From the NCBI GenBank assembly GCA_019637225.1, contig JAHBWC010000120.1, positions 1 to 18,704 on the forward strand: DNA of 18,704 bases, in the 5' to 3' direction. This DNA is from Labilithrix sp. (lineage in GTDB: Bacteria; Myxococcota_A; Polyangia; Polyangiales; Polyangiaceae). A program made the translations under genes and the position numbers. Positions 3,607 to 11,511 of this stretch are shown piece by piece. The notes under the pieces were generated by a model. It did no database searches, was not told where the DNA came from, and was given only the letters and a program-made list of their open reading frames with translations. Numbering within the stretch: the first letter of the stretch is position 1; the number at the start of each line of letters is the position of its first letter.

Positions 3607-4191
3607 ATGACGGCCACCTCCCACTCGCTTGCCGGGGGTGAACACACCCTGCCGAGCATGTCGAGGAGCCGAACGGACGAGAGGCAGCAGGTCGTCGCGG
3701 AGGCTCATTTCGCCAGCGTCTGGCGCTTCCTCCGCGCGCTCGGCGTCCCCGCCGGTGCGCTCGACGACGCGGCGCAGGAGGTCTTCCTCGTCGTCGCCAA
3801 GAAGCTCGCGCAGATCCGGCCCGGCGCCGAGAGGGCGTTCCTCTTCAGCACGGCGGTCAACGTCTCGCGCGAGCTTCGGAGGAAGCACGCGCGCGAGGAG
3901 CTCGCGCAGGATCCAGACGACGAAGCGCTCGAGCCGGCCGACGACTGGACGCCCGAGGCGTCGCTCGATCGAAAGGAGGAACGAGATCTCCTGATGCATC
4001 TCCTCGACGGTCTGAGCGACGAGCTGCGCACGGTGCTCGTGCTCTACGAGATCGAGGGGCACGTCCTCCCCGAGATCGCCGCCATGCTCGACATCCCGAT
4101 CGGCACCGCTGCTTCGCGCCTCCGCCGCGCGAGGGAGAAGGTGGAGGTTCGATTGCAGAAGCTGCAGAGGACGATGGGAGGCGAACGATGA
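3607..4191 (+). CDS. ECF-family (group 4) sigma-70 factor
   Basis: Region 2 (FASVWRFLRALGVPAGALDDAAQEVFLVVAKKL) and region 4 (LSDELRTVLVLYEIEGHVLPEIAAMLDIPIGTAASRLRRAREKV) are recognisable. The size is about 194 aa. The stop overlaps the next start (ATGA). ATG 3658 is an alternative start in the same frame. Confidence 0.85.
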   Translation: MTATSHSLAGGEHTLPSMSRSRTDERQQVVAEAHFASVWRFLRALGVPAGALDDAAQEVFLVVAKKLAQIRPGAERAFLFSTAVNVSRELRRKHAREELAQDPDDEALEPADDWTPEASLDRKEERDLLMHLLDGLSDELRTVLVLYEIEGHVLPEIAAMLDIPIGTAASRLRRAREKVEVRLQKLQRTMGGER

Positions 4192-4910
4192 AGGTCCCCC
4201 GCCGCCTGATAGAAGAGAGCTCGCTCTTCGCGAGCCTGGTCGCGGACGCCGAGAGGCGGGAGCCGCCGCCCGAGGCGCTCCGAGGTCTGCTCCGGAGACT
4301 CGAGTCGCCTCCGGCCGTCGCGACGGGATCCGCCTCCGCAAGCCGGCGGAAGTGGGCGCTCACGGCGATCGCCGGCGCCGGAGGTGTCGTGTTGCTCGGC
4401 GCGTTCACCGCCGAGCTCCTGTCGAGGAACGAGCCTCTGCCGGTCGTGCCGCCCGAGACCACGGCGCCCGCAGCCGAGCACGCGGCGCCCGCTCCGTCGA
4501 TCCCGAGCGCGGCCTCGGAGCCCGCGAACGCCGTTCCGTCGGTCTCGATCGACGAGCTCCCCGACTCGAAGGTGGCCGCGCCGCGCCCGCGGAGCCCGGC
4601 GGCTGCGCCGGCTTCGCCGTCGGCGGTGCCGTCGTCGCGACGCGAAATCGAGCTCGTCGCCCAGGCGCGCGAGGCGCTCACGCGAGGTGACGCACGCGCG
4701 TGCCTGGCGGCCGTCGATCTCCACGACCGCGAGTTCCCCGACGGACAGCTCGCGCTCGAGGCGAACGTGATGCGGATCGAGGCCACGCTCGCGAAGGGCG
4801 ACCGAGCCGGAGCACGCGCGCTCGCGCTCGAGTATTTGGCGAGGAATCCGGGCAGCGCCTACGAGGGGCGGGTCCGTTCGCTCGCCGCCGCTGCGACGGA
4901 GGACCGATGA
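4188..4910 (+). CDS. Anti-sigma factor (short cytoplasmic N-domain, one TM helix, Pro/Ala-rich spacer, TPR-like periplasmic C-domain)
   Basis: It follows the ECF sigma gene with a 4-nt overlap. The TM segment is WALTAIAGAGGVVLLGAFTAELL. The C-terminal region is helical-repeat-like (ELVAQAREALTRGDARACLAAV...ALEYLARNPGSAYEGRV). Confidence 0.75.
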   Translation: MKVPRRLIEESSLFASLVADAERREPPPEALRGLLRRLESPPAVATGSASASRRKWALTAIAGAGGVVLLGAFTAELLSRNEPLPVVPPETTAPAAEHAAPAPSIPSAASEPANAVPSVSIDELPDSKVAAPRPRSPAAAPASPSAVPSSRREIELVAQAREALTRGDARACLAAVDLHDREFPDGQLALEANVMRIEATLAKGDRAGARALALEYLARNPGSAYEGRVRSLAAAATEDR

Positions 4911-9763: not shown

Positions 9764-11511
9764 GACTCCGGGCGACGGGCCTCGCCGTCTGTCTCGGCGC
9801 CGTCGCAGCCGCGCCCTTCGGCTGCGGCAGCGACCGGGATCCCTACCGGCGCGGGATCGAGGAGACGAGCTTCGCCGACGCAGCGGCCGGGAACGGGTGC
9901 GTGGGGCTCGAGCGACGGTGCTCGCGCGATCTCCGCGCGGTGGTCGACGGATGCGACGAGTCGCTCGTGGTCGCGGTGTGCCCGCCAGACCAAGGCTGCG
10001 CGGCGGGGGTGTGCGTGCCGGCGTGCTCCGCGGCGGTCAGCAGCGCCGCGACGATGGGCTGCGAGTTTGCTGCGCTCGCGCCGAGCCGATACGACGAGAG
10101 CCGCGGCTCGTGCTTCGGCGCGCTGCTCACGAACACCTGGGGAGCTCCTGCGCGCATCGAGGCGGAGTTCGCGGGCTCGGCGATCGATCTCGCGGTCTCG
10201 GCTCGCGTCGTGCGCACGTCCGGTGACGGAGTGACCTACGAGCCGTTCTCCGGCGAGATCCAGCCCGGCGAGATCGCCGTCCTCTTCCTGAACCACATGC
10301 CCGAGAGACCGGTCGGGCCGTCTCCGACGGGCGTCGGCTGGGTGCCTTGCCCGGCGGACGTCACGCCTGCGGTGGTCGTCGACGCAAGCATCAAGGGGAC
10401 CGCGCGCGGGCAGTCGTTCCGGATCAAGACGTCGGCTCCCGTGAGCGCTTACAGCATCTATCAGCTCGGCAAGCCGGGCGGCCACGCCGCGACGGCCACG
10501 CTGCTCCTCCCGGTGCCGGCCTGGAAGACCGGCTACATCGTGACGGACGCGTGGGAAGGCGACGTCGGCTTTCCAGCGACGCAGATCGTCGCGGCCGAGG
10601 ACGACACCGAAGTGACGATCCTGAGCAGCGCCGACATCCTTCCTGGGCCCGACGTCGAGGGCGCGGCGAAGGGAGCCCCGAAGAGCTACCGCATGAAGCG
10701 CGGCGAGGTGCTCCAGTTCGCGCAGCGCGAGCAGCTCGACGGCAGCCGCATCGAGGCGACCAAGAGCGTGGCCGTGCTCGGAGGTCACGAGTGCATGAAC
10801 ATCCCCACCGGGAAGCGCTGGTGCGATCAGGCGCAGCTGCAGCTCTTCCCAGTGCAGTCGTGGGGACGCGAGTACGCCGCCGCTCCCTACCTGTCGCGCC
10901 GCGACCGCGGCGAGCCCGAGCCGTACCTCTATCGGATCGTCGCTGCGGTCGACGGCACGGTCCTCACGTACGACCCGCGCCGGCCACCGGACGCGCCGAC
11001 GGCTCTCGACGCTGCCGCATCGAGGACCTTCATGACGAACGAGCCCTTCGTCGTGAGCGCTCAAGACTCGGATCACCCGATCACGGTGTACGCCTACATG
11101 ACGGGTGTCGAGTTCGGCAAAGCCAAGATGGATGACGGCGATCCGGAGTTCACGTACGTCATTCCGACCGATCAGTTCCTCGATCGCTACGTGTTCTACG
11201 TCGCTCCGAGCTACCGCAACTCGCACCTCGTGGTCGTCCGCGCGCGCTCGGAGGGCAAGGACTTCGAGCCCGTGACGCTCGATTGCGCAGGACCTCTCGT
11301 CGGCTGGGAACCCCTGGGCACGGGAGGCAAGTACGAGCTCGTCCGCGTCCGGCTCGGCGACGGTGGAGCGTGCGGGCCCGGACGCCACGAGATGACCAGC
11401 CCGGGCCCGTTCAGCGTGACGGTCTGGGGGACGGACGTGGCCTCGAGCTACGCTTACCCGGGCGGCGCAGCGCTCCGCCCGCTCAACGCCGTCGGCGGCC
11501 TCGTTCGCTGA
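9760..11511 (+). CDS. Hypothetical secreted lipoprotein (583 aa), last gene of the coupled operon
   Basis: ATG 9760 overlaps the upstream stop (ATGA). The signal is MRLRATGLAVCLGAVAAAPFGCGSD. The N-terminal 90 aa are Cys-rich. Composition is balanced (W, Y, F, K present) and GC3 is high. I recognise no family. Confidence 0.8.
   Translation: MRLRATGLAVCLGAVAAAPFGCGSDRDPYRRGIEETSFADAAAGNGCVGLERRCSRDLRAVVDGCDESLVVAVCPPDQGCAAGVCVPACSAAVSSAATMGCEFAALAPSRYDESRGSCFGALLTNTWGAPARIEAEFAGSAIDLAVSARVVRTSGDGVTYEPFSGEIQPGEIAVLFLNHMPERPVGPSPTGVGWVPCPADVTPAVVVDASIKGTARGQSFRIKTSAPVSAYSIYQLGKPGGHAATATLLLPVPAWKTGYIVTDAWEGDVGFPATQIVAAEDDTEVTILSSADILPGPDVEGAAKGAPKSYRMKRGEVLQFAQREQLDGSRIEATKSVAVLGGHECMNIPTGKRWCDQAQLQLFPVQSWGREYAAAPYLSRRDRGEPEPYLYRIVAAVDGTVLTYDPRRPPDAPTALDAAASRTFMTNEPFVVSAQDSDHPITVYAYMTGVEFGKAKMDDGDPEFTYVIPTDQFLDRYVFYVAPSYRNSHLVVVRARSEGKDFEPVTLDCAGPLVGWEPLGTGGKYELVRVRLGDGGACGPGRHEMTSPGPFSVTVWGTDVASSYAYPGGAALRPLNAVGGLVR

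Follow-up and report, generated by a model that had tools for sequence, protein, structure and literature searches.

An operon headed by an ECF sigma factor gene in Labilithrix sp. is one of many colinear cassettes in the Labilitrichaceae and carries a candidate promoter next to the sigma start codon

What is controlled by seven genes that overlap one another by 4 nt, the first of which encodes an extracytoplasmic function (ECF) sigma factor, and is such an operon unique? The question is raised by an 18,704-nt stretch of DNA from a metagenome-assembled genome (MAG) of Labilithrix sp. (assembly GCA_019637225.1, contig JAHBWC010000120.1); this stretch, hereafter the window, is the whole contig and has a GC content of ca. 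70%. An earlier note, made from the letters of the window alone, took the seven genes, here called G1 to G7, for a novel operon encoding an ECF sigma/anti-sigma pair and five secreted lipoproteins. No description of such a system was found, which agrees with that note, but the operon is not unique, being one copy of a large family of paralogous cassettes. On balance, we lean towards the view that the locus is a copy of a lineage-specific, highly amplified ECF regulatory cassette of the Labilitrichaceae, which acts as a switch for an exported binding module. The cassette would consist of a gene for an outer-membrane protein (OMP; G0) upstream of the seven genes, a promoter abutting the sigma start codon, and a polycistronic unit, G1 to G7.

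The gene run was confirmed exactly (Table 1). Seven open reading frames (ORFs), each open and in frame, lie on the same strand and are joined by ATGA or GTGA overlaps where the earlier note had placed them. GC content at the third codon position (0.8-0.96) tracks all seven frames and shifts at every junction, and a GGAGG-type Shine-Dalgarno (SD) box is found 6-12 nt 5' of each overlapped start, from G2 to G7. The N-termini of G3-G7 are basic and then hydrophobic from the first codon, in the manner of signal peptides. Downstream starts for G3-G7 are unlikely, because the signal-peptide-like N-termini would be lost; initiation well downstream of the overlaps is thus disfavoured by codon-position GC, SD boxes and N-terminal sequences alike. 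We conclude that the seven overlapping genes form one tightly packed, co-directional operon headed by an ECF sigma gene, which would be transcribed as a single mRNA. A scan of positions 2200-12200 for intrinsic terminators and σ70 promoters revealed no excess over chance (two terminators versus 2.5 expected). The 3' end of the operon is separated by 72 nt from a convergent minus-strand gene and contains no notable hairpin (folding z = 0.67). The sole Rfam match in the window is a tRNA located outside the operon. No enzyme or defence domains were detected in the eight proteins G0-G7 by Pfam and NCBIfam searches and by PADLOC, which was run on all eight.

A scan with a G4 profile, conducted on one genome per species, produced 320 matching stretches; the best 80 were fetched, and the cassette counts given here come from these. 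At least 64 distinct colinear cassettes were found in six Labilitrichaceae genomes: 21 in MAG OH_HBB_116, 15 in MAG OH_SBlB_141, 14 in Myxococcales bacterium 68-20, nine in L. luteola, four in Labilithrix sp. ACE_MYX5, and one in Labilithrix sp. ACE_MYX10. Gene calls in a MAG (L001/L002) and in Labilithrix luteola (L003) revealed the order OMP, sigma factor, transmembrane protein, Cys-rich protein, propeller, propeller, RCC1 protein (missing in some cassettes, L001 and L002 among them), and FCGBP_N protein, and in L. luteola a second copy of the cassette lies adjacent in inverted orientation. When the eight window proteins were used as tblastn queries, colinearity was strict across cassettes. 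Gene-neighbourhood conservation had been set beforehand as a test, and the same order was observed in every cassette found. Some cassettes are arranged in tandem. The cargo varies, with the RCC1 gene, the second propeller gene or the FCGBP_N gene missing or duplicated in some cassettes, and nine cassettes contain the five cargo genes with no adjacent sigma or anti-sigma gene. Outside the Labilitrichaceae lineage, only the propeller protein was found, without the cassette.

The overlaps are conserved as well. In 60-odd cassettes, whose proteins are down to ca. 30% identical, a 4-nt overlap is present at 224 of 308 junctions (165 ATGA, 55 GTGA, and four TTGA). By junction, the counts are 26/26 for G1-G2, 21/34 for G2-G3, 58/65 for G3-G4, 33/33 for G4-G5, 30/32 for G5-G6, and 31/42 for G6-G7; at the junction between G0 and the sigma gene no overlap was observed (0/17). 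That overlaps are kept at 73% of junctions at such divergence therefore suggests selection on translational coupling. In L. luteola (CP012333; L003/L018, positions 11200-12467), the second propeller gene is split into calls of 339 and 72 aa and the G5-G6 overlap is lost, possibly reflecting a frameshift or a pseudogene.

G1 is an ECF (group 4) sigma factor of the σ70 family. It matches Pfam models Sigma70_r4_2 (8e-12) and Sigma70_r2 (3.5e-6), both above the gathering cutoffs, contains regions 2 and 4 only, and scores 67 bits against TIGR02937 (sigma70-ECF; cutoff 42.9). All equivalog models fell far under their cutoffs, so no ECF subgroup could be assigned from them. In the orthologous loci L003/L018, L004 and L008, no start codon other than the ATG of G1 occurs between the beginning of the alignment and the in-frame stop that precedes it.

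The product of G2, whose start codon overlaps the sigma stop codon, has a cytoplasmic N-terminus, one transmembrane helix (ca. aa 56-79, from hydropathy), a Pro/Ala/Ser-rich linker, and a periplasmic tetratricopeptide repeat (TPR) domain (ca. aa 150-235). Its size and topology are kept in ca. 45 cassettes, and the gene that overlaps the sigma stop is G2 in all 26 junctions scored, as well as in most ORF-based cases. A short motif, LL..AR..PP, recurs in the N-terminus. Against Pfam YfiO (PF13525), G2 scores 18.8 bits, which is under the cutoff of 25; among 26 G2 paralogues, eight match YfiO (best 6.8e-7) and eight match TPR_14, while the best PDB match of the family profile is BamD (9pxg_D, E = 3e-4), over the N-terminal TPRs only. 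The domain thus resembles the N-terminal TPRs of BamD without belonging to the BamD/YfiO family. Its position, 4-nt coupling and topology are those expected of an anti-sigma factor, and G2 is therefore considered a putative one. Of the ECF sigma/anti-sigma pair proposed by the earlier note, the sigma half is established by Pfam and TIGR02937, but the anti-sigma half has these three properties and no domain model behind it.

The G0 gene lies outside the coordinates considered in that note, and its product is 100% identical to NCBI protein KF795_31850 from a Labilithrix sp. MAG. It has a signal peptide, an alpha/beta N-terminal domain (aa 25-115), a Pro-rich disordered linker (aa 122-167), and a C-terminal domain that was folded by AlphaFold2 (AF2) as an eight-stranded barrel; the sequence ends in GWRF. 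The modelled barrel matches small eight-stranded OMPs of the OmpA/NspA-like kind, and we consider the C-terminal domain of G0 to be, according to the model, such an outer-membrane barrel. No Pfam match was obtained for G0 at E ≤ 1. By tblastn, G0 was found upstream of the sigma gene in 16 cassettes, while in most others an ORF 340-400 codons long, with a C-terminus like that of OMPs (e.g., GYEFP, LEIRLF, GAGF, or FQFF), ends 20-110 nt before the sigma gene. The N-terminal part of BamD binds C-terminal signals of OMPs. Because a BamD-like domain is encoded constantly next to an OMP gene, G2 may, by analogy, monitor G0 or another envelope protein.

The gap between G0 and the sigma gene contains a promoter-like element, the 3' end of which is separated from the G1 ATG at position 3607 by 4 nt (3603-3606), with no SD box. 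An ECF-type promoter upstream of 3607 had been suggested as a check on the operon, and this candidate lies directly upstream. The pattern TGATCG-N17-CGTTTAC has one match in the window versus 0.14 expected; since the motif is present only once, sharing of the sigma promoter by G0 was ruled out. In a comparison of eight loci whose sigma factors are 58-93% identical, TGATCG (-34 to -29), CGT (-11 to -9) and AC (-6 to -5) are invariant and at a fixed distance from the ATG in all eight, and the spacer sequence varies. At L004, an orthologous locus that is 90% identical, a GC-rich 122-nt insertion follows the G0 stop (7427-7557), and the motif stays beside the ATG. The gap from G0 to the sigma gene is ca. 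41-44 nt in the window, L001, L006, L008, L010, L018 and L027, and longer in L037. Other sigma clades have the same architecture with different hexamers, with a -10-like box that varies from clade to clade.

When the sequences upstream of 50 first genes were aligned on their start codons, information content peaked at -39 to -27 and at -11 to -7, with no peak at the SD position, whereas in 225 internal overlapped starts a G-rich SD signal was evident from -11 to -8. SD-like 4-mers were detected at 7 of 50 first genes versus 190 of 225 internal starts (Fisher p = 1.5e-21). With the end of the -10 box only 4 nt away from the ATG and no SD box, transcription is predicted to start at or next to the ATG. 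The sigma mRNA would then be leaderless, as judged from the promoter geometry, and we infer that the candidate promoter is autoregulated by G1.

In the nine cassettes without a sigma gene (L016, L020, L023, L025, L028, L029, L030, L032 and L038; ca. 8700-8820), the Cys-rich gene has, at a distance of 4-6 nt upstream of its ATG, a TGATC[AG]-N17-19-CACTAAC-like box, which suggests control in trans by the sigma factor of another cassette. A relaxed promoter pattern was also tried as a family-wide census and dropped, as many of its matches fell on the antisense strand of conserved coding regions, close to where G7 homologues start. These matches, TGATCR-N16-18-CGTYNA on the minus strand, recur at a conserved position in L022, L024, L028, L030, L032 and L038 (ca. 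13820-13970); they have no counterpart in the window and are probably a by-product of conserved codons.

All five cargo proteins have export signals. G3 contains 49 cysteines in 368 aa and five NC[GS]xC[GN]xxC repeats, which agrees with the Cys-rich module recognized earlier. With 49.9 bits against NF041328 (MXAN_6577-like; cutoff 100), it has a related type of repeat and is not a member of that family, and against Stig1 it scores 23.6 bits, just under the cutoff of 24.1. G4 is Trp-rich, with six blade-like xVWxVG motifs and a disordered tether that follows Cys24; this residue and A23 are invariant in its family. Some of its 1363 homologues carry PF14870 (PSII_BNR/Ycf48), and weak matches to propeller models were obtained at the family level (PSII_BNR in 8/31, best 6e-7; Rax2 in 9/31; Tectonin in 6/31), while G4 itself has no match to PF14870 at E ≤ 0.01. 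G5, the most variable cargo protein, is a divergent G4 paralogue with the same Trp-rich character and xVWxVG motifs (BLASTP E = 6e-12 across the signal peptide, tether and first blade); it has no significant Pfam match, and in divergent cassettes its slot is matched by the G4 query. The relatedness of the two presumed propellers therefore holds, but their fold is indicated by weak family-level matches, and we consider G4 a probable beta-propeller on the basis of its sequence.

G6 is an RCC1-repeat protein, as predicted, with matches to RCC1 (7e-22, 78.2 bits) and RCC1_2 (2e-22, 78.8 bits) above threshold; its full-length match to WD40_RLD (7e-29, 101.7 bits) is under the cutoff of 150 and does not set the number of blades. 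G7, which had been taken for a large lipoprotein of unknown type, proved to be a clear member of the FCGBP_N (IgGFc_binding) family PF17517, with E = 7.6e-98 and 327.9 bits (cutoff 25.6) over the complete profile (1-297 of 297), preceded by a Cys-containing N-terminal module. Its AF2 model (pLDDT 87, pTM 0.86) is all-beta and multi-sandwich, and no solved structural relative of the model was found. Another protein from Labilithrix sp. shares 99% identity with G7. PDB sequence searches with single sequences of G7 and G3 and with family profiles of G4 and G7 produced nothing useful.

In the G4 and G7 families, the signal peptide is followed by an invariant cysteine and then by long disordered tethers, which makes lipid anchoring of the cargo plausible. 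In G4 (aa 58-72), G5 (aa 66-82) and G6 (aa 60-75), the tether ends, before the first blade, in a similar DAG..C-x4-5-C module, possibly a disulfide loop common to the three proteins or a motif for docking. The domain content of the cargo points to binding or adhesion rather than catalysis, and the cargo proteins may form a complex.

Taken together, a mechanism can be proposed in which the short cytoplasmic N-terminus of G2 would keep the sigma factor inactive. The BamD-like periplasmic TPR domain of G2, its likely sensor, would perceive an extracytoplasmic cue, possibly through G0, and thereby free the sigma factor, which would then fire its own promoter, TGATCG-N17-CGTTTAC, and give rise to a leaderless mRNA. 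SD boxes and 4-nt stop/start overlaps would couple translation of the six downstream genes, leading to joint production of five exported, probably lipid-anchored proteins, all non-enzymatic and either beta-rich or Cys-rich, which most likely serve together as a binding module of the envelope or cell surface. The role in envelope stress or in the response to prey that the earlier note had suggested is a conjecture.

A number of observations weigh against this mechanism, and each is best considered with the alternative that it favours. The strongest alternative, though in our opinion an unlikely one, is an ordinary ECF operon with unrelated cargo, in which the overlaps reflect genome compaction at 70% GC and the exported proteins (adhesins or matrix proteins, for example) act independently, forming no complex and being made in no fixed stoichiometry. 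Overlaps alone are not exceptional, because overlaps of 4 nt are common in the operons of these genomes, an unrelated RND efflux operon in L. luteola (L003) among them, and the content of the cargo varies between cassettes. A lipobox, defined as a signal peptide ending in [LVI][ASTVI][GAS]C, is strict only in G6 (VVAC); the corresponding residues are AVAC (a relaxed match) in G3, PFAC in G4, PLSC in G5, and PFGC in G7. Five secreted proteins can thus be accepted from the earlier note, but their lipoprotein status is uncertain. However, strict colinearity and the retention of overlaps in highly diverged cassettes argue against unrelated cargo, as do the similar tether and CxxxxC N-terminal module of G4, G5 and G6.

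A second alternative, less probable still, is that G2 is not an anti-sigma factor but a TPR protein, BamD-like and anchored in the membrane, that would assist assembly or act as a chaperone of the OMP or the cargo, with the sigma factor controlled otherwise, by transcription only or by a partner acting in trans. None of the anti-sigma domain models of Pfam and NCBIfam matches G2 or its 26 paralogues, the only similarity being to TPR and BamD proteins, and the cytoplasmic part of G2 is just ca. 55 aa long. Short class II anti-sigma domains of the CnrY/NepR type do exist. The invariable overlap of G2 with the sigma stop, the N-terminal LL..AR..PP motif, and a topology (N-in, single-pass) that is typical of membrane anti-sigma factors speak for an anti-sigma role of G2 rather than for a chaperone.

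With a similarly low probability, the element upstream of G1 is not its own promoter: a shared or master sigma factor or regulator would serve many cassettes, or transcription would read through from a G0 promoter to give an eight-gene transcript. Cross-talk or a shared regulator is possible because the -35 sequence TGATC(R) recurs in several sigma clades and in the nine sigma-less cassettes. As a candidate ECF promoter, the element is typical in its -10 CGT and its spacing (ca. 16-17 nt expected), but its -35 box lacks the AAC of many ECF promoters. First-gene starts of divergent cassettes were picked by ORF length, which may have biased the start-anchored profile, and we infer the single transcript, its start site and autoregulation from the sequence. 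Read-through is favoured by the location of G0, 43 nt upstream on the same strand, and no terminator was detected. Against a shared regulator, the -10-like box varies with the sigma clade; against read-through, the junction between G0 and the sigma gene never overlaps and has no SD box, unlike internal junctions, and at L004 the motif moves with the sigma ATG and not with the G0 stop. A mobile-element origin of the cassettes was considered and not adopted; the window showed neither a transposase nor an integrase, and the copies have the look of duplications, tandem or dispersed.

In its proposed regulatory core, the cassette would work like the classical autoregulated ECF operons (sigmaE-RseA, sigmaW-RsiW and CnrH-CnrY), in which a group 4 sigma gene is likewise followed by a co-translated gene for a single-pass membrane protein, just before the sigma gene lies a promoter of two boxes, the -10 element of which contains CGT, and targets are envelope proteins. 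The cassette differs in that its membrane protein lacks a recognisable anti-sigma domain and has a TPR/BamD-like periplasmic domain, its promoter abuts the start codon (hence the predicted leaderless mRNA), five large exported proteins are coupled to the regulators, and dozens of paralogues are present per genome. With Fec-type systems (FecA-FecR-FecI) it shares an OMP with an extra periplasmic N-terminal domain, encoded beside an ECF sigma factor and a single-pass regulator, and the possibility of many paralogues per genome. However, G0 is an OmpA/NspA-like protein with a predicted eight-stranded barrel and not a 22-stranded TonB-dependent transducer, G2 has no FecR match, the sigma-dependent unit does not include the OMP gene, which precedes it, and transport genes are missing; the cassette is thus not of the Fec type.

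By analogy only, the family resembles the polysaccharide utilization loci of Bacteroidota that are controlled by ECF sigma/anti-sigma pairs, as both comprise tens of colinear, diverged cassettes, each with its own regulator, an outer-membrane barrel and surface lipoproteins. Yet no SusC/SusD, TonB-receptor or glycoside-hydrolase match was found in the eight cassette proteins, and the phylum and the protein families are different, so the cassette is not a locus of this kind. G7 shares its domain with FCGBP_N proteins of gliding Bacteroidota and with animal FCGBP. The Bacteroidota proteins have this domain as a fusion with PKD, SprB or CHU_C/type IX secretion system modules, while G7 is stand-alone and lipoprotein-like and is always encoded by the last gene of the cassette. 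In Labilithrix luteola, 103 FCGBP_N proteins, predicted to be secreted, have been reported, with no description of operon context (Lang et al. 2016; PMC4948705).

Searches of the literature, directed at this cassette or at its combination of domains, produced no paper describing it, in line with the earlier view of an undescribed system, although the regulatory logic itself is of a known kind; it is the cargo, the copy number and the function for which no description was found. The single operon is a sound but ordinary ECF operon. What sets the locus apart is the amplified family to which it belongs, the predicted leaderless promoter, the anti-sigma-like TPR protein, the partner OMP, and the uncharacterised FCGBP_N cargo.

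If the proposed mechanism is correct, one operon under ECF control has been expanded to a large family in a lineage of soil myxobacteria. The family would be a natural system for studying how paralogous sets of sigma factor, anti-sigma factor and promoter stay insulated from one another, and how leaderless translation and 4-nt coupling set protein stoichiometry. It would also offer a route to the role of the bacterial FCGBP_N domain, which is common to an animal mucus protein. A culturable test case is provided by L. luteola DSM 27648 (genes AKJ09_05424-05416). In a bolder version, which we regard as rather doubtful, the cassettes would constitute several dozen to ca. 100 insulated sense-and-display modules. 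In each, a barrel and a TPR regulator would gate a private sigma factor acting on a leaderless promoter, and the output would be a stoichiometric surface complex of eukaryote-like binding domains (FCGBP_N, RCC1, STIG1-like Cys repeats, and propellers). Such modules would allow recognition of many ligands, prey or surfaces, in the manner of polysaccharide utilization loci or a receptor repertoire, and would represent a new way of gating an ECF sigma factor.

Table 1. Positions of the cassette features and of neighbouring features in the window.
Feature	Position	Strand	Product length	Description
G0	2529-3563	+	344 aa	Exported; putative OMP; ends 43 nt before sigma gene
Promoter-like element	3567-3602	+		In the 43-nt G0-sigma gap; T-run 3567-3572, TGATCG 3573-3578, 17-nt spacer, CGTTTAC 3596-3602
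G1	3607-4191	+	194 aa	ECF sigma factor
G2	4188-4910	+	240 aa	Anti-sigma-like membrane protein; ATGA at 4188
G3	4907-6013	+	368 aa	Exported, Cys-rich; ATGA at 4907
G4	6010-7197	+	395 aa	Exported Trp-rich repeat protein; GTGA at 6010
G5	7194-8468	+	424 aa	Exported, divergent G4 paralogue; ATGA at 7194
G6	8465-9763	+	432 aa	Exported RCC1-repeat propeller; GTGA at 8465
G7	9760-11511	+	583 aa	Exported, FCGBP_N domain; ATGA at 9760
ORF	1-2347	-		Runs off the left end; divergent from G0
Small protein gene	11584-12057	-		Convergent with the operon end
ORF	12558-15389	+	943 aa	Just downstream of the cassette
tRNA gene	15445-15515	+		RF00005
ORF	15567-17033	-

Several features flank the cassette. The ORF at the left end of the window resembles, by eye, penicillin/acyl-homoserine-lactone acylases. 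The small protein encoded next to the 3' end of the operon gives a weak match to Lipocalin_4 (2.7e-4), just under the cutoff. The tRNA gene (47.6 bits) lies between the 943-aa ORF and the rightmost minus-strand ORF. Judged from its matches to MVP_shoulder (2e-14), Vault_3 (7.6e-7) and Vault_4 (1.3e-3), the 943-aa product is a bacterial homologue of Major Vault Protein, which forms the shell of eukaryotic vaults.

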